Below are positions 25,410 through 50,243 of a DNA stretch of 64,000 nucleotides, one piece after another. The DNA lies in the IMG/VR virus record IMGVR_UViG_3300017969_000006, positions 35,772-99,771 of that record. The stretch is one strand, 5' to 3'. The position numbers were made by a program, and so were the translations under genes. Numbering within the stretch: the first letter of the stretch is position 1; every line of letters begins with the position of its first letter. Below the pieces are notes generated by a model that was not told the DNA's origin, made no database searches, and worked only from the letters and a program-made list of their open reading frames with translations. Source of the DNA: a virus.

Positions 25410-25485
25410 CCTTTATTTTGCTCGTATTAGTTGCATTACGTCAACTACGCTTCGTTTATTATATTTAGTGTCGAAGGAGCGAAAA

Positions 25486-27194: not shown

Positions 27195-30038
27195 AACGCT
27201 GTAGATGGTGACGAGGACGGTCTCGTTCAGGAGGGCACCCCCTTCGAGCGTCCAGCCACACCCAATGTCGCTCGCGCCCTTAGGAGCGCCACAAGTTCCG
27301 CCGGATTCGACGGGATGAAACGCGACGATATGGCGAAAATGCGTTCAGAAGAATTCAACGAGGCGGTACAGAAACAGTTCGAAAAAGCAAAGGAACTGAG
27401 GGCCGAACTGTACGAGAAATATCCAAAACTGGATGCGATGCTTGCAGCGCAGCAGATTGCGACCGTCACTTCAGTTCGCACCGGTCAGGACATCCGTGAA
27501 GAAGATGTCATGGAAGAACTTCAAGATCTGCTGAAGATCGATAGCGACGAAATCGACGACCTAGCAGACATCATCGCCAGTACACGATTCAGCCAAGACC
27601 TCCTCGAAGCGGACGAAGCGCAAATGTCAATTTCTCGCGCTCGAGATTTCGTTGAGGAAACAACTGAGGACATGGGGAACATCTCGCTCGCAATCACCGA
27701 CATGGAAGAAGACGTAGAAACCGCTCTTGACCGAATCAAGAAAGAACTTGACGGCATGGAGATTTCTACAGGGCAATTCAAAGATCTTGCTGAATCCGAT
27801 GACCGTGCCGACGCAACCCGCAGGCTACTCACTGATTTGATTGACGACCGAGAAGAACTTGAGCAACAGATTCCTCAAATGGGCTACCTTCTTGAAGATT
27901 ACGACGAGGTCAAGGAGATGCGCGATCAACTCAAAGACCTCGTAGATGAACTCGAAGAACTTTCAAGTGGACCTGTTGAATCTAGGGAGCGGGGACGAGA
28001 TCTGCTTAAGCAAGGTTTCCTGAACGCTGACTCACTAAACACGGGGTACGACGAAGACAAGTTTCGTGAGATGCTTGGAAAGTTCCGCAAGACAAAGACT
28101 TACGAGCGTGCCACCGAAGGGATGACAATCGTCCGCAAGCGCAGTATTCCAAAATCTGAACCCGTTGCTGACAGCGACGCCGCAAGGGACATTCATGGAC
28201 TTGGAAAGCGCAGCATCATCAACATCCCGGAAACGGGCGTTCAGGTCATGCTCAACGATGATCAACGTGGCGATGCTCGTCGCACCATCGCTGGTCTCAG
28301 GTCATCAACACAAAATCCTGATGCTTTCGAGAAGATGGACGAGTGGCTTTCCGGTAAATCGCCCAATATTTCGCGAGATCAGCATGAGGAGATTTTCAAC
28401 GAGTTCGCAGATGCCGCCAACCGGGATTTGGATCTTGGAGACCTCCGACACGTCCGTGACGCGATCAACTTGGCGGCAATGTCTGAAGATGGAAAATGGA
28501 AAACGCCAAAGGCTGAGGGTGGATTCGATGGAAGACCAAAACCCGCTGGTCTGACTAAGCGCCAAAGAGCAGATTTGTTGGAGTGGGGGCAAAACGACGC
28601 AGATGACATGCTGCGTAGACGCTTCGTTGGTCTGAAAGAAGATGATGTGTCCCCCAAGGGGTGGATGATGCTCCGCAACGATTTTGGCGGTGGCATGCGT
28701 TCAGCAACTGGCGGTGGAAGCATCAATGAAACGCGTGACACCGGCAAGCGAGCACAGCGAGGTAGGCCGGTTGGCGCTGGTGATGAGAAGAAATTCAAGG
28801 GCAAACCGTTCTCGGAAGTAAAACCTGACAATTGGGATCAGTTGACTGCCGATGAGAGGTTTGACGAACTTCTTACGAATTTGCACCCTTCTAAGACCGG
28901 TCTTCGAGAAGTTGACTTCAACCGTTTGAGAAAAGAACTGGTGCTGGAGTCTCTCCGCTCAGATCAGGAAAGCGAGCGTGCTCGACGTCGGGCTCAGCGT
29001 CGGGAAGCGCTGGCGAACGTCAGGGTAAGCAAACCAACTGAGCGCCCTGCTGCTCGACCTGCTCCAGTTGCTACAACCGCTGAACAAGCCAAGAAGCAGC
29101 GTCAGCAGGAAGTCACGAAAATCGGCAACCGAGTTGCCCGTATTTCGTCAAATATTGACAAGCAGTTCGAGAGAGACGAAGAACGTGGTTTGGACCCCAA
29201 CGATGAGTCCCATAGAGATATTTGGGCGTCACTTACCGACATTTTGGAAGATAGCGATGAGTTAACCCTGTCTCAAGCAGAATCCATCGCTGCAACCCTT
29301 GACGACTACCTAGAAGAAGCATCCGGAGCAGATCTTACTGCAACCGAATCAAACAGTGTCCAAAATGCTCAGGTTCTTCGCGCAGATATGGGCGATCTGA
29401 TTGACAGATATAGGCTTGACCCGAATATCAGCAAGGGTGACAGTTCAGCGGCGGTCCGAATTGGCGGCGAAGGTGAAGAAGATGTCGCCACCACCGGCCG
29501 CTCCGCCGCACGATTCCTTTCCGAAGGCGGAATGCGATCATTTACCTCATACAAGCCTTCCCCAACCGTCCAAGAATACGCAGAAGCACGCAGAAGCCAA
29601 GGGCTACGCAGTCAACAGGCTGGACGAACCGTAATCAATGAGGAAGCGACATTCTTCAAGGCAATCGAAGATTCTCTGGCAAAAGAAATCAGAGAAGCAC
29701 GTAACGCCAACGATTCACGAACGGTTAAGGGGCTTGAACTACTTCAGCGAATTATGCGTCGTCAAGATTCAGGCAAAGTCTCGGATCGTCGAACCAACGC
29801 CGGCGCACTTTGGGTGACGGCAGACGAAGCCGATGAGATTTTGGACGCGATGATGTTTGCCCTTGACCGACAAATGGAAACAGGCGGATCTAGGGTGGAC
29901 CTGTATGCACAATTTGTCGAAATTATCTCGGCTGCCGCAATGGGGACATTCATCAGCAAGACGACCTCGGAGGTTTCGTCACGAACCCAAGCACGAACGA
30001 ACAGTCAAGGACGACAAGTAAATATCCCGAATCAGTAG
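27162..30038 (+). CDS. Tagged cargo protein 1 (frameshift extension of the protease; ORF track 27315..30038)
   Basis: -1 frame reads SLRGRAQSFDPNAVDGDEDGLVQEGTPFERPATPNVARALRSATSSAGFDG, then continues into MKRDD...; largely helical, five [GA][LM]RS motifs. Confidence 0.75.
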   Translation, partial: SLRGRAQSFDPNAVDGDEDGLVQEGTPFERPATPNVARALRSATSSAGFDGMKRDDMAKMRSEEFNEAVQKQFEKAKELRAELYEKYPKLDAMLAAQQIATVTSVRTGQDIREEDVMEELQDLLKIDSDEIDDLADIIASTRFSQDLLEADEAQMSISRARDFVEETTEDMGNISLAITDMEEDVETALDRIKKELDGMEISTGQFKDLAESDDRADATRRLLTDLIDDREELEQQIPQMGYLLEDYDEVKEMRDQLKDLVDELEELSSGPVESRERGRDLLKQGFLNADSLNTGYDEDKFREMLGKFRKTKTYERATEGMTIVRKRSIPKSEPVADSDAARDIHGLGKRSIINIPETGVQVMLNDDQRGDARRTIAGLRSSTQNPDAFEKMDEWLSGKSPNISRDQHEEIFNEFADAANRDLDLGDLRHVRDAINLAAMSEDGKWKTPKAEGGFDGRPKPAGLTKRQRADLLEWGQNDADDMLRRRFVGLKEDDVSPKGWMMLRNDFGGGMRSATGGGSINETRDTGKRAQRGRPVGAGDEKKFKGKPFSEVKPDNWDQLTADERFDELLTNLHPSKTGLREVDFNRLRKELVLESLRSDQESERARRRAQRREALANVRVSKPTERPAARPAPVATTAEQAKKQRQQEVTKIGNRVARISSNIDKQFERDEERGLDPNDESHRDIWASLTDILEDSDELTLSQAESIAATLDDYLEEASGADLTATESNSVQNAQVLRADMGDLIDRYRLDPNISKGDSSAAVRIGGEGEEDVATTGRSAARFLSEGGMRSFTSYKPSPTVQEYAEARRSQGLRSQQAGRTVINEEATFFKAIEDSLAKEIREARNANDSRTVKGLELLQRIMRRQDSGKVSDRRTNAGALWVTADEADEILDAMMFALDRQMETGGSRVDLYAQFVEIISAAAMGTFISKTTSEVSSRTQARTNSQGRQVNIPNQ

Positions 30039-30127
30039 AACGTCAATAAGTACTCCACAGAATAAGCCAATTTTGGGGTACAATTTGACAAACGGTCCTC
30101 ACGAAAAAACAGTTTAAATACCTCTGC

Positions 30128-31690
30128 ATGGTCACAGGCAAACAGGCTATGATGCCATGTAGTGGTTGTAGCATCTCTAAGAGATGTTTACTGAATAACA
30201 TGCAGTACAAGGAGCCTACCAACATGGAACAAGAAGAGAAAGCAGTCATCAAGATCGATGCCGAGGGCAAGATGATGAACTGCGCCAAAGGCCATGGTGG
30301 AGACGACTGCGGCTACAAAACTGGCGCGAAGATGTGCGGCAAGTGTGGAGCCATGGCAGTTGAAGTAAAAGATGACGATGCCGACTCCGAAGATCTCGAG
30401 GCCAAGTCCTACGATGAAATCGACGAAGACGACGAAATTATCGAAAAGGCACTCGCCGCCGTTGCTACCGATGAAGACGAGGACGAGGACGAGGAAGAGT
30501 CCGACGAGGAATCGGATGATGACGCCGAGATGAAGGCTGTTGGCAACGCTCCACAGATGGATGAAGAAGAAGACGAAGAAGACGAAGACGAAGAAGAGGA
30601 CGACGTTGCCCCCGCAGAGGCCGCCCCAGCCGAAGAGGCCACTCCTGCCGATGATGAGCCCACCCCTGATTCTGATGCCGAGATGGAAGAAGAAGAAGAC
30701 GAAGACGAGGAAGAGGACGACGAAGAGGAAAAAGGCTGGATGGGTGACGCTCGCAAGCGCCGCCTCCAGACCATGGGGCGCAAATCTGCCGACCTTGGTC
30801 AGACCGGCTTCCTCTGCGCCGTCGAGCGCAAGGTGTACCCGGGAAGCGCATCCGTCTGTGACGACTGCCCGGGTGGATGTATCGCCGAAAAAGGCATGCC
30901 CGGTCTCATCGAAATCGAAGGCAAGGCCGAAGCAGAGTTCAACGGTACCGTCATTGATTCCGGATACTCGCAGGACAGCGACATCTACGTCATTGACCTT
31001 GAAGTTAAGGACGGACACGCCATCGAAGTGTTCATGGAGGGATCCACTGGCGAAACCCTCGGCTTCCATCGTCTCGACGACTCTGTGTTTGAGCAGAAAT
31101 CGCTGACCGCTGACACCGAACTAATCGATTTCAACGTCGCTGCCGAAATTGCCGTCAAATCAATCGAAGGGGTTGAAGGCATCGTTACCGCTGTGGAGCC
31201 TGACACCTTCGAAGGCTTTGACGTTTACGCAGTAGAGGTCGACGGTATTGATGGCAAGTCATATGACGTATTCGTCGCTCTAGACGGAGAAGTGCTTGGT
31301 TTCGACACTTACGAACCGGACGAGGCGGAAGAGATTGAAGCCGAAGCGGCAGAAATCGCCCTCAAGCGTGCGTTTAATGAATCCCAGCGAGAGGAAATGG
31401 CCAAAGAAGGTCTTGCGCTTCCTGATGGTTCTTTCCCAATTTCCAATGTTGACGATCTGCGCAACGCAATCATGGCCCATGGCCGCGCCGTCGACAAGGA
31501 GAAAGCCAAGAAGCACATCATTAAGCGCGCCCGAGAAATGGGTAAGGAAGAGATGATTCCTGCTGCTTGGACATCCGCCAAGAAAGAAGACGCCGAGGTG
31601 AACGACATCAACGACGCAAGTTTCATGCGTTCGCTGGTCGAGTTTGAAATGCTCATGAACGAGGACGACAGCAACGACGGGAACTCCTGA
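30128..31690 (+). CDS. Acidic head-associated protein: Cys clusters, PepSY-like repeats, C-terminal DUF6582-like domain
   Basis: Long D/E tracts; AAEIAVKSIEG..VTAVE...YAVEV...YDVFVALDGEVL; QREEMAKEGLALPDGSFPISNVDDLRNAI...HIIKRA; alternative ATG 30224 has AAGGAG. Confidence 0.7.
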   Translation: MVTGKQAMMPCSGCSISKRCLLNNMQYKEPTNMEQEEKAVIKIDAEGKMMNCAKGHGGDDCGYKTGAKMCGKCGAMAVEVKDDDADSEDLEAKSYDEIDEDDEIIEKALAAVATDEDEDEDEEESDEESDDDAEMKAVGNAPQMDEEEDEEDEDEEEDDVAPAEAAPAEEATPADDEPTPDSDAEMEEEEDEDEEEDDEEEKGWMGDARKRRLQTMGRKSADLGQTGFLCAVERKVYPGSASVCDDCPGGCIAEKGMPGLIEIEGKAEAEFNGTVIDSGYSQDSDIYVIDLEVKDGHAIEVFMEGSTGETLGFHRLDDSVFEQKSLTADTELIDFNVAAEIAVKSIEGVEGIVTAVEPDTFEGFDVYAVEVDGIDGKSYDVFVALDGEVLGFDTYEPDEAEEIEAEAAEIALKRAFNESQREEMAKEGLALPDGSFPISNVDDLRNAIMAHGRAVDKEKAKKHIIKRAREMGKEEMIPAAWTSAKKEDAEVNDINDASFMRSLVEFEMLMNEDDSNDGNS

Positions 31691-31713
31691 AGGCTGGGAA
31701 AGAGTGGCCCACT

Positions 31714-34700
31714 ATGGCCAACATCCGGGCCGAACGAGTAATACTTTCTGATCGCGTCAACACCTATCGACGTGATTACGAAACCATTGGTGCTCTCTTT
31801 CGGATAAAGAGTGCGGTACTTGCTTCCCAAGAGAGCCTTGACCCAAACATCTCTGTAAAAGCGTTAAATCAGGATCTTCCCAAAAAAGATAAAAAAGATT
31901 CTGAGAAGCGCACTTCTGGTACGGGAGTTGAAGAACAACTCCCCGAACTTCGCTATGCGCCTAACGGCAAACGTGGCCGTGGCGACGTACTCAAACTGCA
32001 TGTAACCCCACGCGACCTCACAACTGGCAACGAACCAAACTTTGGTTGGATTCCTGCTCCTGAGAAAAAATCCGAAGAGGAAACACGCAAACAAATGCGT
32101 GAACTGTTGGATTGGAAGAAGCGCCGACCCAAAGTTCGCGTCAGGAGTTTTCGTGCTGACCCAAGAACAGGTCAACGAGTAGAGGATTCCGGTGTCGATG
32201 TCGAAGTAAAAGGACTCGGCAGAAAACTGAACCAGATTGTTCCCGGAGGGAATTTGTCCTCACGTGCGGCTGGGGCAGTTGGAGTACTAACTGACGCAAA
32301 CGGGAAATTCCGATGCCCGCCCGGAACCCCGGCAGCCAACCAGTTCACCGATGAATTTGGTACAAACTGTTTCAAACCAGCACTCTCCTCGCGTCGACTC
32401 ATTGGAGCGATGCGTCGGTGGTTCGACAAATATGTTGAACTCGGAGAACAAATCCAACTGCTTGAAAGCATGGGCATATACGGTGTCGGGCCAGACGACC
32501 TAACCCCTCAATACAGGCAAAACATCCGAAACATGGTTCGGGCTGCTGGAAGTGTTGCGCCAAAAGAACGCGTCCAAGAAGTTCAATCCCGAATGGACAC
32601 CGCAATTGATGCCCTCCAAACACGACTTGGAACGACTCGCGACACCACAGACAATGCCGACATGTGGACCGCGCTGGCAACGCTGGCCGCCGATGAATGG
32701 CAAGACCTTGACTTCTCAGGGATTTTTTCCGGACCGGAAGGCTGGGGTTCGTGGAACAAAAACATGCTTGCCGACCCAAAGGGTCGCACTCCTCAAGCAG
32801 CAGCAGATCACACTGCCGACGTTCGTAGCCAATACATCTCAATGTTTGACAACTGGGTGTCGGACGGCCCAATGCGCCAAAGGTACCGAGATGGAGACCC
32901 CGAAGCCAGAGCCCTCATTGACGAAATGGTTACCCGCCATCTGGCAGCAGAGCGTGGCTTCTTAAAGGCGATTCTTCAGGAGTATCAAGAATCCCCGGAA
33001 ATCATGCGTCAAGTAAAGACGCTAGGCCGAACGCAAATCCGTGATGGCGAGGCGTTTGATGACTATTGGCGAGTAGATGGAGAATGCAGCCCGGCAGGTT
33101 TCCACCCCAGAGATGGGTTCGCTCTGAATATTGACTTCAACGCGGCAGCAGTGGCTCTGAAACCAGCAATCCAAAACGGACTAGCAAATTACACTTCTGA
33201 CGGCCGCATCCTCTTATTCGATATCGACCCCAACGATGTGTCTCGCTCATTCACTTCGGAAGCCGAACAGTGGGCCGAAATCGGAAACCTGATGCAGAAC
33301 ACCGTCGATCTTGAACGGTGGCGAAATGTTTACGCTCAAGACCTTTCTACCGCACGCCACGGCTCAATCGAAGCAAAGGGTGTGCATATCGCAAAACATG
33401 AACTTGGTCACGCCCGCCAGTACCAGTTCATTAAAAATGCCGTCTTGGACACCCACGCCAAAACAGGCTCCACCTACTTAGTCAACTCAACTTCAGGTCA
33501 AATTGAACGGCTCGACGTTTCTCCCGATCAGTGGACTAACCAGCAATGGGTTGATGTGGTGACGAGTCAGGTTCAACGTCTTATCCCAGAAAAGTACCTC
33601 GCCGATGGCTTCCCACCGACGTCGCTTGAGACGTTCGAAGGAACAATGCTTCACATCATGGCGGGAAGGTATTACCAAGACGAAGTTCAAAATTTCTTCA
33701 ACTTGAATGATGATGCCAAACGAGGACAGTCGGCATTGATGATGCTCGAAGGCATGACAGAATTGCGCGCGCTTCGAGATATGGGTGTCCTCATGGATCC
33801 AGAACTCGACCGGCTCGTGTCATGGATGGACGACGTTGACCCCAGAACACCGGAACGCCCTGATCCGCAAGGAGTTATCTGGCCGCCGCCGACAAGTTCA
33901 GCAATGCAAGTGTTCCAGCCGGATCCCAATGGAACGTGGGACACAATTAGCCGCACCCCGATTGAAGATCCAAACCCGTTCATTCCTGACCTTGGCGGAA
34001 AACAGGAACATATCGATGCCATCAATTCACGCATCTCAAGTCTCAATCGCAGTCTTCCCGACGCCGAAAGAGACCTTTTTGATCCAAGAAGCGAAGTCGT
34101 CGAAATCCAGAACGGCAATGACGTTGTCGAACAACTGAGAAGTGGCAAAACCGCTCTCGACATTGAAAACCTGACGGTTAAGAAACAGCAAATCATTGAC
34201 CGCGAAGTACTTGCTGAGGACATCGCAGCAACAGGAGAAATCGACGATGTTGGGGATCTCGAGGTCGGCGATGCCATCCGATTCAAAGGATTCAAAACAC
34301 TTGATCGCCGCATGGATGCTGATCAAGAACAAGACCTTTCGGCTGACGAAGGAAAACGGAAAGTCAACTTTGTTCTACCTAAGGGAACAAAAGGCATCGA
34401 AAAACAAAACCCGGCGAACAACGAGCCCGATCAGGTTGAGATTCCCGGCGGAGAATACGAAGTCCGTTCTGTTAACCCAGATGGAACTGTCACGCTAGTT
34501 CCCCGCAGCCAAGATGATGCCGACACCGTTGCTCGTCGCCTCATCGACAGTCTTGATGGAAGTTCCGACATAGACGACGTTCGCGATGCTGTAAGAACAG
34601 TTCAGAAACGGGCGCAGAAGTACGTCCAGAAAAAGGAAAAGATTCGTCGAGCCACGCGATCCAGCGACCCGGCCACCGCACAACGTATGGAGCGGCGCAA

Positions 34701-37700
34701 TGCGGCGATTGTCGAAGAAATTCGGCAACGTGGAGCAAACCCATTCCGCGTAACCGACAGAGATATCGAACGCATCTGGGGCTCTGTAAGACCCGGTGAA
34801 CGTCCACCATTCACCCGTGCCCAAGCAGAAGAGGCTTACGGACGTGCGCTCGAAACTATCGAAGATCTCCGTGGCCGACCAACAACTGGGCGATTTGGTC
34901 GAGCATTGGAAGCAACTGATGAAGTCAGAGAATTCCTAGAGACCGCCCGCCAAAGCGAAATCGGTGCGCGTATTGAACGCGCTGTAATGGAGTACCACAA
35001 CGGTTTCGATTCACGCCCACGATACCGGACCGACATGGACGGCCTTCAGAGCATCATTGACACAGGGGACTCACGTGGCCTCATCCCGCCACGCGGTTCT
35101 CAGTGGGATCCGTTCCTTGATGCTGAAGATGCCATGCAAGGGTTCACTCCAGATGATGGAATTCGTCCACTCTTCGGCAATCTGCTGCACGCTGACGATG
35201 ACAGCGCCATTCAACGCTACTTGGACAACATCAAGGGTTACGCCGCTATTCGAGACTCGGAGTTCTTCGATCGGGTAACTGAGTCGCCACTCGGCAAAGT
35301 CCTAACCGGAGATGTCGAATTGGTTCTTCGTGCCGATGTCGCTCGCCGAACCGGATACGGAATTGGTGATGCACGAGGTCAAATCGCGTTTGGCGTCATG
35401 ATTCACGACGACGATCCAGCGCGTGTCCGTCAAGCACTCCTGACACGTCGATTTGGCGGACCTATTGACGACACCGCAACCACAGGCGCAGCATTGGACT
35501 TCTTGCACGCAGACCTGACCGGTGACTACTCGGGAATCAGAACCCCGATGGACACCCTTTCCCTTGACGCTGGCCTCAGCGTAGACGTCAGAGATCGAAC
35601 TATCCGTGGACGAGTAGACGCAGATGCATTTATCGCAGGCGGATTCAACGGCGAAGAACTAGAAAATGTTCGAATCGGTAGTGCTTCACTGAACTACAAA
35701 CGTCAATTCCTAGCACCAGCAGAAGTCGGCGCGAACAACAGCGAACTCCGCAAGAGGCTCGGTCTTGCCGGTCTCTCTAAAACTGAAGTAGACACCGTGT
35801 TTGAGTTCGCTCAAAGCGGCCGCCTCGACCTCGAATCAGCCGACTTGCTACGAATGAACAAAGCAGCACGGGAACAGGCAGACCGTTTCGCAAGAGTCGG
35901 TATCAGCACAACTTTCACCAACGATAAGGGCATTAACGTCCTTGATGGTGCTTCGGTATCGGTAGAAACACCGGGTATTGGCCGCATCGAAGCATCCAAG
36001 CGTGCCGACGACATCCTGCGTGTACGCCTTGAGGGAGAAATCGCCGAGCGCGCAGAAGACATTGCCAAACAAATTCGATCTGGTGTTGGTCTTCGTTCAG
36101 CAACCTCTTCACCACGCCGAGACGCCCCAATCAATGTCGTTGACCCCTTTAGTGATGACCCATTTGGCGGTGTGGTTGACCGAGCACGGACTGTTGTCAC
36201 CGACCGTATTCGCGACGAAGTAAGCGAAAGAGCAACGGCGCTTGCAACAGAGAAGATTGGCCGTCTGGGAGCCAAACTTTCCCGTCGTCAAGTTCAGAAT
36301 CGCGGCATACAAAGAGTTGGCATGAACGTTCTTCAATCGGACCGAGCAGAAAATTTGCTTCGTCGGGCCGGACTTGAGACAGACGACATTGAGAACATCC
36401 GCTTTGTCGGTGAACTTGCTGCTGCCTTCGGAACTTCCGGACCGGCCGGCGTCGGATTGGTTCTCGCTCGACGCGGAAGCCGTGAAGGAATCGATTTTGG
36501 TGTTCGCAAAGCACGCGAACAAGGTTGGATCACCGACAGCCAAGCCAACGCAATCTTGCGCGCCGCAGACACCGTTGCACCAGAAGGACTTCCTGATGCG
36601 GTGACGAACGCAATTGGTGAACAAGCGCAGCGAGCCATCAACTCAGACGCAGCCGATCGTGCTAGGGAAATCGCAAGCGCCGCCGCTGAACGTGTGCGTG
36701 AACTTGACCTTGGTGATCGTGTTGGGGACATTTTTGATAGGGGTCGCACGGCCGATACTCCTGCTCTTCCGTCCACACCCAACGACCCATTCTCCGCGAA
36801 TGATCCGTTCGCACCTATCTCCGGTGGAGGGCTTCGCTCTCAAACTGGGCGTTCGATTCTCGCACAGTCGAAACCAATTTTTGACATTGAATCTGATGAC
36901 GACATCAACAAATTGGCCGACGAACTGCGAACCCTTACGCAACCAGATTCAAGAAACCCTAATAACCACGTGAGCATCATGGCAGAAGAGTTGCGAGACA
37001 TTATTGGCGATATAGAAACTCCTGATCTTCTCACTGGTGAACCACGCAAATATGCGGAAGACATCACTGACAGCATTCCTTCATATATTGCCAACAGAGT
37101 ACGCGAGCAACTGGGCGATATGCCGCTTTCTGACGAACAGAAGCAACGCGTTGGGGAACTGCTCGCGGCATCCGAGCAGATGCGAGAACTTGACGCCTTC
37201 CGGTTTGACATCATGCAACGGAGGACACCTGATCAAGTCACTGATACGAATGACCCATTTGGTGGTCCACCACCAAGAAGGCCAAGCGCACCACCACCAA
37301 GAAGGCCTACAGCAAACGACCCATTCTCTGACGGTCCAGAAGAAGTTCCAGAAACGCCGCCTCAGTACACCGCTGCGCAAGCACGCGAACGTCTCGATGA
37401 GATCCTTGCAGATTCAACGATTTTTACAACCGAATTCAATCAGCGCCAATCAACTATCACCGAGCGAGAAAATCGTCGATCCGAAGTGGAAACACGCAGG
37501 CAAGAACTTGAGTCAGTAATCAATGAACTGGCTAGATACGAAATGGTTACCGCTGACCGTCTGACAGAAGAAATTGATAGAACTGCACCAGTTGGAAAAG
37601 CCACAACCACACAAGCGGCCAAAATCGATCCCAGACAACACGCCCCACAGCAAGGCATTGTTCGTGACCCCAAAGAGGTCCAGCGAATCGCAGAACAGAC

Positions 37701-38742: not shown

Positions 38743-38959
38743 CAAACGAGTCACCACCGGAGATGACGGCATCCGTTTTCAGCCTAGCCAGACGTACTTG
38801 AAGTACATGGAAACCAGCGCTGTTCGTGAACTGCTTGATAAAGACCCCGACGTTGAACCGTACCTCCAGCAGATCTTTACTGCGCTGCCACAAGTCAGTG
38901 AAGTAATCGATCTTTACAAAAACACCTACATCATGGCGCTGCGTGAGGTTGAAGAATGA
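38735..38959 (+). CDS. Small protein coupled to the 2342-aa gene (candidate immunity/partner)
   Basis: GTG 38735 with GGAG upstream, overlapping the upstream stop; 74 aa. Confidence 0.55.
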   Translation: MDSKRVTTGDDGIRFQPSQTYLKYMETSAVRELLDKDPDVEPYLQQIFTALPQVSEVIDLYKNTYIMALREVEE

Positions 38960-41445
38960 GAGCAGTACTAATTGGTCAAGTTAGAAAAAACCCGGTCTAC
39001 TACGACCTAGACGGAAAAGAAACTGACGCGTTCGTTGTCGATAAAGAAAACAACGTTGTTCCGGTCAACGTTATCTCCCTCATTGGCAAAGGCCTCATAG
39101 AACCCATCAACGACTCCGACTTCACTGACTTCTTTTGGAATGGTTCCAAAGAGAGCAGCAAAAGATGGGAAAACATTTTTATCCATCGCGTTCAAGATGT
39201 GCCAGACAAACTGTTGCGTGGAGTTCAAATGCTTACCACTCCACCAAAAAAGAAGAATCCGGCGCGATCGAAAGCCGTTGAGGAAAAAGCGCTGAGAGCA
39301 GATGCCTACAAAGCGCTTGTTGAGAGCGAGCAGCACGAGAAAGCACTGGGTCGAAGTCTAAATCGATTCGGTGGAAGGGCTACTGCGGGTGTTCGTGGAT
39401 TCGTTCGTAATGCCCGATGGGACCCTGACGCATTGGATGCTGACGGTGATGGTTGGGTTCAGGAAGGAACACAGTTCGCTCGTCGGATAACCGGTGCTAA
39501 TGTGACGAAACCGAATAAGCCTTCTCCACCCGAAGTCAACGTTGAGCACTATCGCGCGCTTAGAAGTCAACAAAGGCGCAATTATCAGAACTATCTAAGC
39601 GGATCGATCAGTGAACGACTTGCAAAACGTAAAGCGCGATTCTACATCGACCGCATGGAGAAAGTTGACCAAATGATCGAAAGCCGTTTCTCTGACGGCA
39701 AGCGAATCAAGACCGTTGGCGATATGCGTAAAGCGTTTGAACGTGCTCATCCGGGTTTCATTACAGGTGACAGCACTGCCGAATACTTGAATAGCGCAGA
39801 TCCTGATGAGGAACTAAAAGACACGGTTAGGGAACATGGCTACATGTTTCTTTTGGCACTTATGTCGAATCCGGACCTAACGAAAGCAAACTGGAAATTC
39901 ACTAAAGTTGATCCATCCGAAGAGTTTTCTGGCGCCGCTGCTTTCAAAGGGCCGAACAAAATCGACAGACTTGGAAAAGCACGAGATTTGCCTCGAAACC
40001 GAAAAATGCTTATCGAGATCTCCTACAAAGATGAATTTCCCGAAGCGAAATTTAGAGATGCGCAACAAATGGATGCTCGTTTACGTTTGCAACTTGAGAA
40101 CACCAAGATTATTGCGTCCATATTGAGGTCTGATTTGCCAGACGATGAGAAGCAGGAGTTTGTTCGTCGTTTTCATGCTCGCTCAACAGCATTCCACGAA
40201 ATGACACATGGAAGCATGTATTTTAAAGCGTTCACAGATTCATTGGCGTCAGTCGGTTTACAGCCTGACGAAAAAACCGACGCCGATGCGATCTTGGATG
40301 AGGTGTATACAGCAATATCAGATTTAGCACCAGAAAAAGCATCCCTTCTTGCCGATCAATTCTGGGCAGAAACTATTGCCATGCCAGTTGCATTAGTCAA
40401 CCGTGTCTTGAATTATCTTATGCTTCGTTCCAGTATGGATCCAAGAGCGAAATCAACCATGCTTGATGCGATCAATGCGGATCTCACGGATGGTCAACCC
40501 AATGCCCCTGAACCATTGCGTGTCTCAAAGAAACTCTCCGCGTTTCTTAATGACAAGCAAATCCCGAAAAATCTTGCTAAGCCAAACGATCCACAAGATA
40601 CAACCTTCGAAGAAGGTGACGCTTTATCAATCAACTCGACTATGAACATACTTGCGCATCTGGTCAACGACTTGGGTTCTGGAAATGGTTACCAGAATAG
40701 GCTTCCGTGGGCTGGACGGAAGGCAGTTAACTTTGGTAAGAGCGAAGATGACATTGCCCTGAATTGGCCGCTCCTCTTGGAACATGGAATTCCAAATACA
40801 GACCTTGATTCAGAAGATGTAAAAACATTGCTTATGGCAAATATTCGCATTGGAGAAGTAATCTCGGAAGTGCTTCAATCAGGTAATCCAGACAGCATCA
40901 GGAATTTTGCTGCTATTGCGGCAAGTAACCAAACACAAATTGCTCCCGCTGTTTGGTTGGGCCTTACTGGGAATATCGCAAATCAAAGCATGCGTGAAGC
41001 ATACGTTCAATCCAGTATTCGAGGGGGAGTATCGCAACTTTGGGAAAGCGTTAAAGCAAGCGGCACGGACCGTGATCGAGGAAGAATCATTGACACCCTC
41101 GCCTTACTCTTGGGCGTATGGGACGACCTGACCCCACAGCAACGCGATCTTGCTAAGAACTATGCCGCAATGTCGGGTGGCGGTCTTTATGCTTCGTACG
41201 CTGGATATATCACTAACTTCACGCAGTTGGGTCGAGTTTTCGATGGACTCAACTATGAACTGCTCGCCGAACTTGGCCCCTTAGCCCTATTCGGCAATGT
41301 GGCAGAAATGGCGGATGAACAGGCTGGCGGGATTCGCGAACTTGACCCATCTGAACCAACATATGAAGCATTGCAGAAATTGATTTCGTGGCTGTGGCCC
41401 GAACTCCCCTTCGCGTTAAACGGTAAAGAGAAGGCAAAGTCATGA
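38956..41445 (+). CDS. Tagged cargo protein 2, zincin-like metallopeptidase
   Basis: HEKALGR, WDPDALDADGDGWVQEGTQF, ALRSQQ; HEMTH (40195) and distal LYASY...ELLAE (41257). Confidence 0.7.
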   Translation: MRAVLIGQVRKNPVYYDLDGKETDAFVVDKENNVVPVNVISLIGKGLIEPINDSDFTDFFWNGSKESSKRWENIFIHRVQDVPDKLLRGVQMLTTPPKKKNPARSKAVEEKALRADAYKALVESEQHEKALGRSLNRFGGRATAGVRGFVRNARWDPDALDADGDGWVQEGTQFARRITGANVTKPNKPSPPEVNVEHYRALRSQQRRNYQNYLSGSISERLAKRKARFYIDRMEKVDQMIESRFSDGKRIKTVGDMRKAFERAHPGFITGDSTAEYLNSADPDEELKDTVREHGYMFLLALMSNPDLTKANWKFTKVDPSEEFSGAAAFKGPNKIDRLGKARDLPRNRKMLIEISYKDEFPEAKFRDAQQMDARLRLQLENTKIIASILRSDLPDDEKQEFVRRFHARSTAFHEMTHGSMYFKAFTDSLASVGLQPDEKTDADAILDEVYTAISDLAPEKASLLADQFWAETIAMPVALVNRVLNYLMLRSSMDPRAKSTMLDAINADLTDGQPNAPEPLRVSKKLSAFLNDKQIPKNLAKPNDPQDTTFEEGDALSINSTMNILAHLVNDLGSGNGYQNRLPWAGRKAVNFGKSEDDIALNWPLLLEHGIPNTDLDSEDVKTLLMANIRIGEVISEVLQSGNPDSIRNFAAIAASNQTQIAPAVWLGLTGNIANQSMREAYVQSSIRGGVSQLWESVKASGTDRDRGRIIDTLALLLGVWDDLTPQQRDLAKNYAAMSGGGLYASYAGYITNFTQLGRVFDGLNYELLAELGPLALFGNVAEMADEQAGGIRELDPSEPTYEALQKLISWLWPELPFALNGKEKAKS

Positions 41446-41780
41446 ATCAGAAAGAATGGAACAAAAAACTCGAGAAAACTACCGGTTTTCCAATCAGTGA
41501 AATGTTCACTGCGCTATCCAGTGATCAACTGATTGGGAAGATTCGGGAGGCTGAAGATGGAAAGGATCCATTCGCTGACAAAAGAATGGAAAAATTTGAG
41601 CAATTTCTTGATGTCCATTCAAATAAGCGCGTAAACCCAAACAATCCTTTTAGGGACGATCGAGATCGTGAAATTTGGTCAACGATCGAGTTCCGGACAG
41701 TTCTCTTGCCTCCAAAAGAACGAAATAAGCGGATTCCAACCTATTTCGGACCGAATCGAGTACAACTAGAAGTTTCCTAG
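41442..41780 (+). CDS. Small protein coupled to the 829-aa gene (candidate immunity/partner)
   Basis: ATGA overlap, 112 aa. Confidence 0.6.
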   Translation: MNQKEWNKKLEKTTGFPISEMFTALSSDQLIGKIREAEDGKDPFADKRMEKFEQFLDVHSNKRVNPNNPFRDDRDREIWSTIEFRTVLLPPKERNKRIPTYFGPNRVQLEVS

Positions 41781-41813
41781 CATCATCATTATCTATTCTA
41801 AACTGGATACACC

Positions 41814-42449
41814 ATGGATGAAATCGAAGTCAAAGGCCCACAAGATGTAATCCTCGACCTTCCACAGGAACGAGTCACGGCGATTACTGGCGGCAGGGGA
41901 CCGCGTCGCGGCAACCTTGAGAGGTTGTTGCGCTATTGGCGTCCCATCATGAAAAAGCCGGGTGGATTCAGAAGGTGTCGTGTAATTCTTGCGGACCACC
42001 CAGAACTTTACCCACTCGAACGAATCTGTGCTTGGCTGCACCATGAGACAACCGGTCTTTGGCCCAATGAGGGATGTCACCATCCCGGAATGAAAAACTG
42101 TAGAGGAAAACTCAAGAAGCGGAACTGGTCTGATGCCGACTGGAGCAAGAGGATGGCTCGACGCTTCAAAAAGAACAAGAAATCTATCTTTGATCATCAA
42201 GTTGATGACATGTTCTACGGTGATTTTATTGAACGTAAAGAACTTGAAACAGATTTCGACTATAATCAAGTAGTTACCGAAACAGATTTCAAGCATGCGA
42301 TGTCCGTTTTGTCAGACTTCATGGACATGGAACCTGATTTCGTCTCGTATATCAGAGATTACGAAAACTGGGAAATCGTCGGAGACGACGAAAACGGCGA
42401 TGAAATTTCGGCAACATTCGTGAAAACCGAAGATTGCGGATGTGACTGA
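41814..42449 (+). CDS. Head-associated protein with Cys/His domain
   Basis: GNLERLLRYW...PGGFRRC...ICAWLHHETTGLWP; begins MDEIEVKG. Confidence 0.65.
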   Translation: MDEIEVKGPQDVILDLPQERVTAITGGRGPRRGNLERLLRYWRPIMKKPGGFRRCRVILADHPELYPLERICAWLHHETTGLWPNEGCHHPGMKNCRGKLKKRNWSDADWSKRMARRFKKNKKSIFDHQVDDMFYGDFIERKELETDFDYNQVVTETDFKHAMSVLSDFMDMEPDFVSYIRDYENWEIVGDDENGDEISATFVKTEDCGCD

Positions 42450-44404: not shown

Positions 44405-47400
44405 AACAGTACGCTTTAGTAAAGGACATGGTTAACGGCTCGTCTTACTATGGCGTTGTCATCCGTGAAAATGGGCTTACCGAATGCAAAGGTGTTTCAG
44501 GTGTAGGCGAAAAGTGGGCGGAATCTTACAACAACGCCGAAACTAAGTCCCTTGACGATGGTCTTCCCTATGGTGTGAAAATCGGAGAATTCCATGCGTT
44601 GACTCAAAGCGAGGAAATCCTTGTCGAACACATGCTTGACGGCAACACTGTTCGTTTCCCAGACAGAACTCAACTGAAGCAACTGTCTTTCCACAAAACA
44701 GACGCTAATTCAAGCCTTCCTGCCGTTTCAAACACGCCGCTTTCAGCATTTTTGATGGATGACCTGCAAACCGCAGTTGACTACAAGATTCGCGCTTTCC
44801 TCTCCGACTCTGCGAGAGCGTCAGTGATGCTGAAGTCACGTCTTGAAAGATACGGCATCAGCGACACAACTGTCGGCTTCAAGTCTGCAAGCAATAACAG
44901 TTTCCTGAATGAAGACATGTCCAGTGTGGCTCGTGGACATGGCAATCTTCGACGTGCGCTGTTGGATATCAGAGACGCAAAATCAACCTTCCTAGAAAAT
45001 CATCCGGGATATCAGGTTGGAATCGAGGAAAAAGCAATCGGGCGTAGCCTCGGTCGAGGTGCGCGCATTGGCAGACGTGCGGCTCGCGCCTTCAAGCCAT
45101 ACGACCCGAACGCAATCGATGGCGACATGGACGGAATTGTTCAAGAAGGAACACCTTGGGAACGTCCAGCAGTCAGAGTTGGTGGACGTGGCGTTCGCTT
45201 AACCCCAACGCAGCAGCGGGCAAGAAGCGAAATTGCTCCAGATGTCGGGATGCGTAGCCGGACGGGTGATGGAGAAAGCATTCAGGACAGGCTTACAGCG
45301 GCGCGTAACAGTCGACAGCAAAAACTTGCCGATCGCATGCGTGAAATGGGTTTCGACGATGACAATCAAAAAGAAATCAATGACTGGCTGAGAACCTTTA
45401 ACCCGGAAGATTTCGAATATACCGACATTGATGATCTCGAGATTGAAGGTCTGACCTCGCGCCGTGGCTCATCCAGCCCTACCGGCAGCATTTTTGGTCA
45501 GCGCCGTTACTCAAGCGAGGATTGGATCGAAGGCCAACTCGATGAGGGGCCGCTTGCTGGTTCTTTCTTTGAACTTCGAACCGCACGCGATTACACCGAA
45601 AGCAACTTTAATGATCCGGGTGAAACGCTCGGTGGTAATGATGAGTTGACTGTTTACACGCCTGATGGTGTCGTTCTCAGTTTCGAAAACGAAACATGGG
45701 AAGACTCTTTGGACCTTATCAATGTCCGCGCACCGGGCGGTGATGGCCTTCGGTCAAGAAGTCGACGCGGGGATGACGAGGACTACCCTCGTATCGACCC
45801 CGATCTCATCAACAGGTTGCGAAATGAACGATTTGTTCCCGAGACAAGTCGTTCTGGTCGTGCACGTCAAAACCGCATCATTAACACCCCGAACGCTGAT
45901 GGTGGTCCACCACGTCGTGCAGTCCGGGAGCGCTCTGGCCGAGTTGTCCCAGAACCACCGGCACGTGATCGGAGCGGACTGCGCAGCAGGACCGGTGACA
46001 CCGCCAACAGAAATGCCGAATTGACCGGTGTAGGAACAACCGTCCCCAAAGCCATGAAGGCAAACAGGAAGTTCTTCCAAACACTTGCTGCCAACGGATT
46101 CGTTTGGGACGACAAGCCTGACACCAGTGGCAGAGTTAGGATTTTCCTACCCGACCGCATGTCCGACTGGACACTTGACCAGCCCGACAGCGTCCGTAAT
46201 CAGTGGGGCAAATTCAAACCAGCCCGCGAAAATCAGGCAGCCGGCTTCATTCACGTACACCCCGGCAAGGACACGCCACAACGTCCTGAAAACATGGCGA
46301 AACGTTTCCTGCGCACCATTTTTGGCGACACCGCATGGGACGACATGGAAGCAAACGCCAAGAAACCCGGCGATAAGCGCGGCACTGGTCGAATCGGAGT
46401 AATTCCTTCAACTAGCACCGGCGCGACTGGATTGCGTTCCGCAACGTCTCGTGCTCGCACTCGTACTGCCTCAACGGAAAGAGTAGCAACGCCCACCACA
46501 ACCGGACGAAGCCTCCGCTCGGGCCAACTGCGCAAACTTGGAAAGCCCGGTGTCGCAAGAGGTGAAAGCGACGGAAAAATCTGGGAACAATTGGATGACA
46601 ACCAACGCGATTTGTTCAAGCAATTTGCACAGGCGCGTGAAGTTCAGTTGATGCGGAATCTCACTCAGGATGCGAGAATGCGAAAGTTCCGCAACAAGAT
46701 GATAGATGATGGCGATTTCGACGAAATCGACGAGGACGGCAACGTTGTGCGGAATTACAACAAACCGCTTGCTCGAAACATCATCCCATTGGCGCAACGA
46801 GAAATTGACGATCTGCTTCGCGATGAAAAAATCACGGAGGAAACCCACGTAAAGTGGCAGAAAACTTTGGACGACATCAAGACGTTGCGCAACATGAAGG
46901 AAAGCGACAACTACGAAGCGCTGGAGCACCTGCATCCGGCAAGTCGTGCCAAGATCATCAAGGACGCTCGGGGTGAAGATTCAAGCATTCCGGGTGTTCG
47001 TGCACTGAAGGCTGATGGTCCGTCAACGTTCTTCGGTGATCAAGCCCGTACAGCCAGTGGTCGTAGCGCCGGTAAGAATCGGAAACCGAAAAGGAAGCGG
47101 CCTTTCGCTGACCGCATTATCACACCGAATGTTGAACGACTACAGCGTCGGGCGGCTCGTCGTCAACGAGCACAAGCGATTCGTCGGGGAGGCCTTGTTC
47201 GCGGTCAAGAGGCTGACGTTTCTGCAACGCAAAATGCTCGACGCAAACTGGCTCGTCAACTTCGTCGAGCACGACGCAGATTTAAAGGAGAACGCGACGA
47301 AAGAGCGATCCGTAAAATCTTTGACGAAAAGAAGAAAAATCACCCATTGGCCCGTACAAAAGAAGGCGCTCCAGAAGTCAATGACAAGTACGTTGATTAC

Positions 47401-48246: not shown

Positions 48247-48255
48247 ACTATTGAC

Positions 48256-48639
48256 ATGAGTGATACAACTAACGAATGGGGCGAAGATCTGCAAGAGGTA
48301 GAGCGTCGACAGCAATTCACCGACCGGTTTAACGAGTTGATGGACTTGACCGACTACCCGCCATTTTCAATCAATCTTGAAAAACACAACGAGTATCGCG
48401 AAGAAGTCATGGCCTACAGCGTGAAAATCTCTGAACAAATTCGTGAAAGCGACGCAATCGAAGATCGACCATTCTCAACACTTATGGCGAAATGGGAAGA
48501 TGACCTTGACGAGGCCAAACTCTACAAACAGCGTTATGGTAGGGATTTTGTTGGCGCCCAGAAAGCGGCCGCAAAGAATGACGGCATCTCCATGCGTGAC
48601 GTAAAGCCCATCGGACCACCATCAGCATATAAAGACTGA
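48256..48639 (+). CDS. Small protein after the 1281-aa gene (candidate immunity/partner)
   Basis: 127 aa; ATG lies 6 nt after its own TAAACT box. Confidence 0.6.
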   Translation: MSDTTNEWGEDLQEVERRQQFTDRFNELMDLTDYPPFSINLEKHNEYREEVMAYSVKISEQIRESDAIEDRPFSTLMAKWEDDLDEAKLYKQRYGRDFVGAQKAAAKNDGISMRDVKPIGPPSAYKD

Positions 48640-50243
48640 TGAATAAAGGGGCCGCCGGGAAAGCGCGAGCACTCCGACGCGCTAAAGAATTGGGATGCAC
48701 TGGTGCACACAAACATCCTGACGGCGGCTGGATGGCATGCTCCACCCATGAAGAGTACGAGCGTTTAGAAGCCGAAGAAGAGTCCGAGCAAGAAGAAAAA
48801 TCCGTTCTTTCTCGTGTTCGTGAATTCCAAAGTGTTCGCGAACGAAAAGGCAAACGCCGCAAAAAGAAAAATAAAAAGAACTGGGAAAAACTCGGTGAAC
48901 GTGGCGTTGTTTCAATCGACACAATCACTGGCGGCGGGCTCGTTTCGGGCGCTGTCGCTGGAAAAGTTGCATCAGCAATCCCCCGTGACGGAGAAGAAGA
49001 TGTTTTTACCGACATCAACTCAGCACGTCGAAGGGCGCGACAACTGGGATGTATCGGAGTTGCACGACGTCGTTCCACTGGCGGTCAAGTCGTATGGACT
49101 CCGTGTTCAAACATCACCGACTATGCGCGACGCACAGGAAGCACCGCCCTTGGCCGTCGATACATAGAACGAATGCGACGGCAAGAAGCGCGTCGAATCG
49201 TTGAAGAAGAACGCAAGCGCGGTCGCTACAAGCGTAAAATTTCCCTATTTGAAGAACTTCACGGGAAAGCGCTCGGCAGGAAAATCCGTCAGGCTGCTGC
49301 TGTTTTCGATGCCAATGCCACGGATGGTGACAACGACGGGATGGTGCAAGATGGCACCGCTTTTGCTAGACCAGCAATCCCCAAGGGTGTCGGTAAGTCG
49401 AAAACATGGAAAGACCTCATTGAGATGGAGCCCGGTTGGATGTCCGAGGCACCAAAAAACATTCAAAGAGCAGCGTCGCAGGAAGCGAGAGAAAAACACC
49501 GGAAATTACGTGTTTCTGGGCTTCGTTCGCAGCAAACCGGGTCCGGTGGTCGTGCTCAAGTGAGTCGAATCATGCAACAAGTCATGCCAGAGCATCGTGG
49601 AAAAGAGGATAGAACCCTCTATTTCATTGGCGGAACAACTGGTGCGGGGAAGTCAACTCTCACCCGAAATGACAGATTTGGGATACCGGGGCCTGATGCT
49701 GCTGCACATATTGACCCTGATGAGATTAAGGCCGGTTTGGTTGGCTGGGATAATGGCCGTGGTGCTGGTGCCGTTCACGATTCTTCACGACGAGTTACCG
49801 ATCACGCCATGAAAGCAGCGGCTGAGGAAAAAACCGATATGGTCGTTCAGGGTACTGGCAAGAGGACTGAGCACCTTCAAATGGCTCGTCAAAATGGATA
49901 TGCAACTGTTGGGCACTTTGTTCATATTCCCGGTGACGAAGCAGATCGCCGGATTGTTCAGCGAAATGCTGACAATAGGCAGAATGGTGGAGCGATAATC
50001 CCGGAATGGTTTGGGAGCCAGATTGGTCGTGAACTACAGCCGATTGTTCCTCGTCAAATTACATCCGGATTATTTGATGAATTCTTCTTGTGGGATAACA
50101 GCGGAGACACACCCGTTCTGATTGCTAAGCGCACCAAAGACGGAAATTACAACATCAATGATATTGATGCTTTCAATGATTTCTTTAGTCCGACCGGAGC
50201 CGAGTACGTCAAGAACTACTGGGATAGTAAGTCAAGTAGTTAA
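48639..50243 (+). CDS. Tagged cargo protein 4: two DUF3721-like repeats plus zeta-toxin-like P-loop kinase
   Basis: AKELGCTGAH...WMAC and ARQLGCIG...WTPC; HGKALGR, FDANATDGDNDGMVQDGTAF, GLRSQQ; GGTTGAGKST, HIDPDEIK, VVQGT, LWDNS. Confidence 0.8.
   Translation: MNKGAAGKARALRRAKELGCTGAHKHPDGGWMACSTHEEYERLEAEEESEQEEKSVLSRVREFQSVRERKGKRRKKKNKKNWEKLGERGVVSIDTITGGGLVSGAVAGKVASAIPRDGEEDVFTDINSARRRARQLGCIGVARRRSTGGQVVWTPCSNITDYARRTGSTALGRRYIERMRRQEARRIVEEERKRGRYKRKISLFEELHGKALGRKIRQAAAVFDANATDGDNDGMVQDGTAFARPAIPKGVGKSKTWKDLIEMEPGWMSEAPKNIQRAASQEAREKHRKLRVSGLRSQQTGSGGRAQVSRIMQQVMPEHRGKEDRTLYFIGGTTGAGKSTLTRNDRFGIPGPDAAAHIDPDEIKAGLVGWDNGRGAGAVHDSSRRVTDHAMKAAAEEKTDMVVQGTGKRTEHLQMARQNGYATVGHFVHIPGDEADRRIVQRNADNRQNGGAIIPEWFGSQIGRELQPIVPRQITSGLFDEFFLWDNSGDTPVLIAKRTKDGNYNINDIDAFNDFFSPTGAEYVKNYWDSKSSS

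Follow-up and report, generated by a model that had tools for sequence, protein, structure and literature searches.

A short peptide with the consensus G-[L/M]-R-S, usually followed by x-[T/Q/R], recurs between the modules of large proteins encoded in the head module of an uncultured phage, and the reading of this motif as a protease site by which the polyproteins would be split is well supported by comparison with relatives and by structure prediction. The DNA considered, here called the window, is a stretch of 64,000 nucleotides that makes up bases 35772-99771 of the 99.8-kb IMG/VR virus record IMGVR_UViG_3300017969_000006, which is about 67% complete. The motif is enriched in the proteins of a gene block that lies between the prohead protease gene and the capsid gene, it is placed at domain borders, it is conserved in position among relatives, and its spelling is specific to each lineage. 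We consider it probable that some phage-encoded protease cuts at the motif, and we lean, if only modestly, towards the whole account, in which the motif is the cut site of a junction and the prohead protease of family S78 is the enzyme.

The original prediction listed 13 hexapeptides, suggested that they punctuate modules, and proposed that they are cut by the head protease or by one of the encoded zincins. All 13 are found in the coding frame at the positions given below, where the variant SLRSGQ is included, ORF stands for open reading frame, aa for amino acids, and pLDDT (predicted local distance difference test) for the confidence of the AlphaFold models.

27276..27293, plus strand: ALRSAT, the first site after protease and tag, with Ala at position 1; plausible, relatives having GMRS or GMRA 20-40 aa after the tag
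28293..28310, plus strand: GLRSST; the aligned residues of homologues are HLASSN, VLATTR and KAGDAV, and the model predicts a helix (27-41) in a block of pLDDT 56-70
28692..28709, plus strand: GMRSAT, ORF 27315 aa 460, conserved; BLAST matches start here, at the start of the pLDDT<50 segment 172-202
29529..29546, plus strand: GMRSFT, ORF 27315 aa 739, conserved in Arg-class relatives; inside the pLDDT<50 segment 422-481
29601..29618, plus strand: GLRSQQ, ORF 27315 aa 763, 3-8 residues before a conserved C-terminal domain (GRTxIxxEATFFK); at the end of the pLDDT<50 segment
36088..36105, plus strand: GLRSAT, ORF 31714 aa 1459, followed by a Pro/Asp-rich stretch; no homologue covers the site
36829..36846, plus strand: GLRSQT, ORF 31714 aa 1706, conserved; aligned with SGRGLRSSTGR in L003
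39556..39573, plus strand: ALRSQQ, ORF 38956 aa 201, between carrier plus tag and the HExxH domain
45247..45264, plus strand: GMRSRT, ORF 44401 aa 283, first after the tag, conserved; aligned with GMAS in L035, GFAS in L079 and GMRS in L108
45745..45762, plus strand: GLRSRS, ORF 44401 aa 449, in an Arg/Gly/Asp-rich stretch; no homologue covers the site
45976..45993, plus strand: GLRSRT, ORF 44401 aa 526, in a Pro/Arg-rich stretch; no homologue covers the site
46429..46446, plus strand: GLRSAT, ORF 44401 aa 677, conserved; GMRS in L078 and L010, and the L010 match starts here
46510..46527, plus strand: SLRSGQ, variant, ORF 44401 aa 704; aligned with GMRS (L014) and GFAS (L080, L059), whose matches start here
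49518..49535, plus strand: GLRSQQ, ORF 48639 aa 294, directly before the zeta-toxin-like kinase domain (Zeta_toxin Pfam match); in a pLDDT<50 break

As punctuation between modules, 12 of the 13 hexapeptides are plausible. The remaining one, GLRSST at 28293, is probably a chance match, because homologues do not share it and because it falls within a predicted helix. The variant SLRSGQ at 46510 is probably the real second site of a double joint, because it is aligned with the GFAS and GMRS sites of relatives at the point where their matches begin. A further candidate, SLRSDQ at 28950, was rejected; it lies in a long helix of pLDDT 87-89, is unconserved and is aligned with unrelated residues. Double joints, i.e., pairs of sites about 25 residues apart, are seen at 29529-29618 (GMRSFT, GLRSQQ) and at 46429-46527 (GLRSAT, SLRSGQ).

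The number of copies expected by chance was obtained by shuffling the residues of the eight block proteins (7,347 aa) 5,000 times. The tetrapeptide G[LM]RS is then expected 0.33 times and observed 11 times, and the 6-mer of the original prediction is expected 0.03 times and observed 13 times. None of the 5,000 shuffles reaches the observed count for either pattern, also when the shuffling is confined to 40-aa windows so that the local richness in Gly, Ser and Arg is kept. With 8 copies, GLRS outnumbers every other tetrapeptide in the block. The enrichment is seen equally against the rest of the proteome. The block, with 7,505 aa, has 11 copies of G[LM]RS, whereas the other 80 ORFs of the 99.8-kb record, as defined by a crude gene set, have a single copy in 23,820 aa (Fisher p = 1.4e-6). 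In a six-frame translation of the window, the 6-mer is found only in the coding frames of the block, plus one in-frame copy in a tape-measure-like protein on the minus strand (ORF 4305-8453).

Synonymous codons had been said to vary between the sites, and they do so to the full extent, in that 6 of 6 Arg codons, 6 of 6 Ser codons and 4 of 4 Gly codons are used. Windows of 61 nt round the sites are at most 48% identical to one another. This rules out that the motif arose from a DNA repeat or by recent duplication, and from the use of all synonymous codons together with the lack of a DNA repeat follows that the recurrence of the motif is selected at the protein level.

The sites are, furthermore, retained at corresponding positions in relatives whose matched stretches have 30-57% identity, and between which the linkers differ in both length and sequence. 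The conserved positions are 460, 739 and 763 of ORF 27315, 1706 of ORF 31714, 283 and 677 of ORF 44401, and 294 of ORF 48639. To take three of them, position 460 is aligned with GMRS or GLRS in L036, L029, L090, L119, L068, L083, L049 and L089; position 763 is aligned with GMRS, GMRA, GFSS or GFAS, depending on the lineage, after a linker of variable length; and position 294 of ORF 48639 is aligned with GMRS, GLRS or GMRA in L122, L028, L121 and L108, while the zeta homologues of L078 (GMAS) and L080 (GFSS) have their own spelling tens of alignment columns upstream. BLAST matches start at the motif in both partners at position 763 (L119, L068, L089), at position 460 (L003/L090) and at position 677 (L010). 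Consider also the zeta homologue of L108, which has the same DUF3721 carrier, the same tag, the first GMRS and the same kinase, with about 900 aa and their bounding GMRS sites in between. The carrier that makes up aa 1-125 of ORF 38956 occurs by itself, as a protein of about 140 aa, in L078, L010 and L059, and in L053 it is followed by tag, GLRS and other sequence. Homology blocks and models demonstrate the multi-module build of the block, and its conserved single-module proteins (ORFs 30128, 41814 and 42449) have no site.

Structure prediction places the conserved sites at borders. AlphaFold models were built with the alignments of relatives, 14 of them for residues 289-907 of ORF 27315, and the mean pLDDT is 67 for this part of ORF 27315 and 71 for ORF 48639. 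Sites 460, 739 and 763 of ORF 27315 are within the low-confidence segments 172-202 and 422-481 of the model, and the first strand of the C-terminal domain begins at model residue 483. In ORF 48639, GLRSQQ (residues 294-299) is in a break at 291-300, just ahead of the kinase domain (301-534), as expected from the earlier statement that one instance directly precedes the zeta kinase. When the sites are compared with domain boundaries in these two models, all 4 of the conserved sites modelled thus lie in breaks with pLDDT<50 at domain borders, an outcome that has a chance of about 3 in 1,000 given the share of low-confidence residues, and the two unconserved look-alikes (GLRSST, SLRSDQ) are in helices. 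Most instances had been placed in linkers, and in accordance with this all sites are flanked by stretches of below-median hydrophobicity. In the original proposal of a protease site, the part that makes the motif a functional short linear site at module joints is supported by these comparisons; which enzyme would cut there is a separate question, to which the spelling of the motif is relevant.

Relatives were collected by scanning viral contigs for the pattern of the tag described below, which is present in at least 117 stretches. About 50 among the matches listed form one clade (portal E ~1e-270, capsid proteins 75-82% identical). In each lineage, the tetrapeptide that is most over-represented in the long ORFs belongs to one motif family, and the spellings are distributed as follows.

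GLRS: the window, L003/L090, L094, L068
GMRS: L014, L029, L036, L047, L083, L089, L108, L119
GLSS or LSSG: L075, 14-17 times
RLSS: L088, 13 times
GLAS: L025, 7 times
GFAS: L005, L015, L022, L033, L051
GFSS: L026, L041, L069

In general, a site reads [G/R]-[L/M/F]-[R/S/A]-S and is preceded by Arg or Gly and followed by small residues. Within a genome, the Arg class and the Ser/Ala class are nearly mutually exclusive, so that L003 has 11 sites with Arg and none with Ser or Ala, while L075 has 13 with Ser and none with Arg or Ala, and the portal tree implies at least two changes of spelling class. Such uniformity within a lineage fits a recognition site that co-evolves with one trans-acting enzyme. 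In L075 (IMGVR_UViG_3300010885_034363), the 2510-aa protease polyprotein ends in ...GRDSGRGLSSGRNRKKG at its stop codon, with the junction motif 10 residues before the stop.

The motif reaches beyond the head polyproteins, since the tape-measure-like protein has a site too.

6717..6734, minus strand: GMRSQT, aa 574 of the tape-measure-like protein (ORF 4305-8453, 1382 aa), in a Gly/Pro-rich linker

This is the sole G[LM]RS outside the head block in the 99.8-kb record. The protein has no PHROG match, and the name tape-measure-like is based on its size, on hydrophobic segments and on a C-terminus that by eye resembles M23; the M23-like stretch reads ..GGALDLIG..HLH.., and the layout is like that of T5 pb2. 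In 6 of 8 lineages the tape-measure homologue bears the spelling of its own lineage in the same linker, i.e., GGLRSST in L003, GGLSSGK in the GLSS phage L075 and GFAS in L022, and there are tandem sites in the GLAS phage (two GLAS) and in L041 and L021 (two GFAS each). The motif is missing from this linker only in the two GMRS phages examined. Lineage-matched spellings of this kind are not due to chance, and it therefore appears that the same recognition system reads a tail protein.

These patterns suggest the following scheme. G-[L/M]-R-S would be a short recognition site. It would be set in the flexible linkers that join the modules of those virion proteins which are released from the particle during infection, namely the protease-led polyprotein, three carrier-tag-effector proteins, a 2342-aa zincin protein and the tape-measure-like protein. 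A phage endopeptidase would cut at the site, by which the N-terminal carrier with its DxDxDG tag would be freed from the effectors and the effectors would be parted from each other. The enzyme would be the HK97-type (S78) prohead protease with which the first polyprotein begins, and it would act within the prohead like T4 gp21 and the phiKZ and SPN3US proteases. Its preference at the third position would have changed from lineage to lineage (Arg, Ser, Ala), with all sites of the genome following suit.

The tag of this scheme is a longer element, (E)KALGR ... [FYW]D[PA][ND]A.D[GA]D.DG.VQ[ED]GT.[FW][AE]R[PR], which is carried by four proteins and has the first G/A-[LM]-R-S site 6 to 47 residues downstream.

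27186..27257, plus strand: tag copy 1, FDPNAVDGDEDGLVQEGTPFERPA, 6 residues before ALRSAT
39418..39489, plus strand: tag copy 2, WDPDALDADGDGWVQEGTQFARRI
45100..45171, plus strand: tag copy 3, YDPNAIDGDMDGIVQEGTPWERPA
49305..49376, plus strand: tag copy 4, FDANATDGDNDGMVQDGTAFARPA

In the model of ORF 48639 the tag is in a low-confidence segment (208-254). The form [FY]DPNAxDGDxDGxVQEGTxxERP is very widespread, being that of the at least 117 viral stretches, and it also terminates many small proteins (60-230 aa), at times as two tandem copies (L054, L061).

Between the protease and the first tag, the reading frame of the window is broken.

27154..27314, plus strand: A8 run (27154-27161) and the -1 frame that leads into the tag, the first site and ORF 27315, from frame reading; in frame in L098 and L049

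The protease ORF ends in GAA AAA AAA GTC TGA, and the homology with relatives resumes in the -1 frame exactly at the A8 run (EKK, then SLRGR..). Across the run the homology is unbroken, the window having ..ASKSIFGETEKK and then SLRGRAQSFDPNA.. where L098 has ..ASKHFFGGGSKKALRSLRGLTARFDPNA... Tag copy 1 and ALRSAT at 27276 are upstream of the first possible start (ATG, GTG or TTG) of ORF 27315, and are reached in translation only through a -1 shift at the A8 run. Four runs, of which one is an RNA library, were assembled separately, and their contigs all have the same A8 run; the runs may share a sampling campaign. Since the contigs of these four runs agree, the frame break is real in the DNA, and an error of assembly is an unlikely cause. 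In almost all relatives, protease, tag and cargo make up a single ORF that is in frame at this point, and an ORF of protease, tag and up to about 2,400 aa of cargo bears 5-11 sites. The frame break of the window is either a programmed -1 shift, which would set the ratio between free protease and protease-cargo fusion, or a fixed frameshift mutation.

The genes that bear the motif sit in the head module together with the portal, S78 protease and capsid genes, and the surroundings of the block are as follows.

9770-11248, minus strand: tail sheath gene
21827-23131, minus strand: large terminase
23390-25375, plus strand: portal
25468..27168, plus strand: prohead protease ORF, with Peptidase_S78 at aa 29-176, DUF6321 at aa 186-257 and an acidic C-terminal part, from Pfam and PHROG matches
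27315-50243, plus strand: cargo block of eight ORFs, between protease and capsid gene
50395..51711, plus strand: HK97-fold major capsid protein, which ends the block, from Pfam, PDB alignments and the capsid alignments of relatives

Judged from its tail sheath gene, the phage is an uncultured myovirus, and contigs near-identical to the window are found in many salt-marsh runs from 2018; in salt-marsh viromes the phage has a contig depth of 7-17x. The only domains detected in the cargo block by Pfam and PHROGs are Zeta_toxin and DUF3721, both of which belong to ORF 48639. ORF 30128-31690 (520 aa) has a Cys-rich N-terminus, a very acidic run of Asp and Glu (residues ~85-200) and a C-terminal domain that is about 60% identical across all lineages; it always comes after the protease polyprotein, bears no junction motif, and is possibly the scaffold. 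In ORF 31714-38742 (2342 aa), residues ~1480-1870 repeat [ND]DPF, a further short linear motif, in Pro-rich linkers (NDPF four times, also VDPFSDDPF and ANDPFSANDPFAP), and in L003 DPFADPFADPFA comes immediately after a GLRS site. A search for loci of relatives with ORF 44401 found none. The nearest cultured phages are the Gordonia Bendigovirus phages and Brevibacterium phage Cantare, with about 50% identity for the capsid protein and about 41% for the protease domain; when the protease ORF is searched against cultured phages by tblastn, the matches are to Gordonia, Brevibacterium and Streptomyces phages at only ~41% identity and cover the protease domain only, and the same search with a 54-aa tag segment gives no match.

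The S78 prohead protease is favoured as the enzyme that reads the motif. It matches Peptidase_S78 (PF04586) with 47 bits against a cut-off of 21, and its WGH65 and WS129, which are invariant in 23 relatives, presumably supply the catalytic His and Ser. S78 is the sole head-protease family detected in the 99.8-kb record, where neither ClpP nor S49 was found, and the polyprotein fused to this protease has the first and densest run of sites. A complex prediction with the S78 domain (residues 1-176) and a 39-aa joint segment (A1 residues 462-500) has a score of 0.02 and is counted neither way.

As for the bond, HK97 cuts its capsid protein between K103 and S104, in an unstructured stretch (PMC10275583), and the capsid proteins of the present clade have [KRQ]↓[ST]-[IV]-G where, judged by pattern, such a site would lie, the arrow marking the presumed bond. 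For this reason the better guess is that the junctions are cut ahead of their invariant Ser (G-L-R↓S, G-F-A↓S, G-L-S↓S), and the bond is probably Phi-x↓S.

Several observations weigh against the S78 protease, or against cutting as such. If the third residue is P1, its change from Arg to Ser or Ala is a large shift in specificity. The capsid protein, the portal and the scaffold-like ORF 30128 are without G[LM]RS, the nearest approach being GEGLRE at residues 86-91 of the capsid protein. The capsid maturation site, which by its pattern with HK97 may be FK↓SIG (97↓98), stays constant while the junction spelling of the lineages changes; the junction motif was looked for at this site and is absent, and an upstream column (GLRE, LKG, IKE, LSS or LKS) tracks the junction class only partly and was not taken as evidence. 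From a capsid site that ignores the spelling follows that junction sites and capsid sites may be read differently or by different enzymes. In the protease itself, columns 52, 55 and 92 (numbered from the Met at 25486) split the Arg lineages from the Ser/Ala lineages among the five lineages grouped; other groupings have equally many columns, for which reason this co-variation was dropped as evidence and is retained as a lead only. The HExxH of the zincin is kept in the ORF 31714-like protein of every lineage with data. The Gordonia Bendigovirus stretches examined, i.e., those of the nearest cultured phages, have neither tag nor motif. The tape-measure-like protein has its lineage-matched site and yet assembles in the tail, outside the prohead, so that a protease confined to the capsid does not explain this site. 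Finally, cleavage itself, the enzyme, the bond, packaging and ejection are all things that we infer from the patterns above.

The tape-measure site can be accommodated by a bolder version of the scheme, in which one fast-evolving phage protease reads a lineage-specific "ejectome code" on all proteins that exit the virion, head cargo and tape-measure protein alike, and in which all these sites are re-spelled together each time the specificity of the protease moves between Arg, Ser and Ala. Cutting may here be wholly or partly post-ejection, in the new host, which would explain why a tail protein shares the code, and a drifting spelling could serve to prevent interference by host inhibitors or by relatives that infect the same cell. 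This version is possible but doubtful.

Alternatively, the motif may be cut by a packaged zincin, that of the ORF 31714-type protein or that of ORF 38956, which could act on it before assembly, in the cytoplasm, or inside the capsid, or once it has been ejected. The conserved HExxH, at about residue 570-616 of the ORF 31714 homologues, is what this idea builds on, and a zincin that acts after ejection could reach the tape-measure-like protein and the head cargo alike. That the capsid site fails to track the junction spelling is what would be expected if S78 reads sites of the K↓S type and another enzyme reads the junctions, and such sites are indeed separately enriched: K-[SA]-[ILVM] occurs 30 times in the head-module proteins (window 23390-51711) where 14.9 are expected (z = 4), and with a preceding hydrophobic residue or Glu 18 times against 5. 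Among the matches are the EKALGR that opens each tag and FKSIG and FKSLQ in the capsid protein. This enrichment, together with EKALGR at the tag starts, implies that there may be two classes of site, K-[SA]-[ILVM] being a second, HK97-like class. The work on polyvalent proteins (PMC5512222) also proposes that metallopeptidase domains process such proteins, a self-processing that is itself inferred in that work. The zincin region is, however, only 25-37% identical between lineages, the zincin proteins are without the DxDxDG tag, and it is the S78 protease, rather than a zincin, that is fused to the polyprotein with the first and densest run of sites. Taken together, a zincin as the junction enzyme is unlikely.

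Another possibility is that the motif is never cut. It could be a docking peptide to the inner capsid surface, the portal or the scaffold, by which cargo is loaded or ordered in the manner of encapsulin cargo-loading peptides, or it could be an ejection signal. A short linear motif in disordered linkers, multivalent in each chain and common to head cargo and tape-measure-like protein, all of which go through the tail channel, has the appearance that such a function calls for, and lineage-specific spellings are also expected when a peptide co-evolves with one docking partner. The likely partners are nevertheless very conserved (capsid and portal, as quantified above for the clade) while the motif changes class, the sites are exactly at the borders where modules come and go, and the DxDxDG tag, a separate conserved element, already looks like an address label. 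Furthermore, cutting in a tape-measure linker is known from T5, where pb2 is cut after R1127, between a hydrophobic stretch and the peptidase domain, by an unknown enzyme (PMC10038345). An uncut motif is for these reasons improbable.

Very improbable, finally, is cutting by a host protease or by autoproteolysis in cis with the invariant Ser as nucleophile (an N-to-O acyl shift, as in SEA domains and pyruvoyl enzymes), for although the Ser comes after a small or variable residue and different hosts could account for different spellings, autoproteolysis needs a folded frame round the bond where the flanks are unconserved, variable in length and predicted to be disordered, and a difference in spelling between relatives with such similar capsid proteins (75-82% identical) is easier to obtain with a fast-evolving phage enzyme than with housekeeping proteases of the host.

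If G-[L/M]-R-S is a cutting signal, the set of injected proteins of a large uncultured clade becomes readable from sequence, as carrier, address tag, junction and effector. The clade would then also provide a naturally occurring set of proteases paired with their site variants (Arg, Ser, Ala), in which the evolution of protease specificity can be studied. The tape-measure site would link the maturation of head and tail, or their processing after ejection, in a manner for which the literature searched has no description.

It remains to compare the S78 protease and its candidate sites with known systems. The HK97 protease is small, and its known substrates are the delta domain of the capsid protein and the protease itself; we know of no cargo polyproteins or junction code that belong to it. 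HK97 gp4 and gp5 share with the present phage the protease family (by Pfam) and the capsid fold, and the basic residue↓Ser bond of HK97 matches G-L-R↓S if the cut is before Ser. The maturation site of the capsid protein is here not spelled as the junction motif, the capsid protein having no G[LM]RS. The assemblin of herpesviruses, whose fold is that of the HK97-type proteases, cuts (V/L/I)-x-A↓S. Those lineages that use GFA↓S presumably match this A↓S bond with a hydrophobic residue upstream, in a register that we take to be off by one, since the hydrophobic residue is at P3 in assemblin sites and here at P2 if the cut is before Ser. With T5 pb2 the common feature is a site in a tape-measure linker; for T5, no link to sites in head cargo has been described.

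Polyvalent proteins (Iyer, Burroughs, Anand, de Souza, Aravind 2017; PMC5512222) are presented in that paper as giant multi-domain proteins of late or virion gene contexts with zincin, zeta-type kinase and ART-like domains, which are predicted to be packaged, injected and processed into units by embedded metallopeptidases. Assemblin-like peptidases are C-terminal in the polyvalent proteins described there, while the protease is N-terminal here; of the domain catalogue given there, only Zeta_toxin is detected here by Pfam, HExxH being seen by eye; and term searches of the paper gave no recurring junction peptide. On S78 specificity and protease-headed polyproteins, the literature searched has nothing specific. 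An HK97-type protease that heads a polyprotein, several internal sites per chain, a spelling that changes as a block between close relatives, and a site shared with a tape-measure-like protein were found nowhere in the searchable literature.

The closest parallel is with the head proteases of T4 and the giant phages. T4 gp21 strips N-terminal targeting peptides from IPI-III and Alt (PMC9958956), and in SPN3US, gp245 cuts nine head or ejection proteins at a motif, by which propeptides of 20-254 aa are removed (PMC10052503). As in the systems of T4 gp21, phiKZ gp175 and SPN3US gp245, the present phage seems to have injected proteins that are packed in the head, an N-terminal targeting part and a recurring short cut motif, and the 200-290 aa of carrier plus tag that come before the first site resemble the SPN3US propeptides in size. 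The proteases of T4, phiKZ and SPN3US are of the gp21 lineage and cut after Glu (A-x-E in SPN3US), whereas the protease is here HK97-type and the site is G-Phi-x-S. In contrast to T4 and the giant phages, the substrates are here polyproteins built of many modules and with several sites inside each chain, the first of them begins with the protease, close relatives differ in their spelling, and the tape-measure-like protein bears the motif. If the motif is indeed a cutting signal, the head-protease logic of T4 and phiKZ would thus extend to HK97-type proteases and to true polyproteins.

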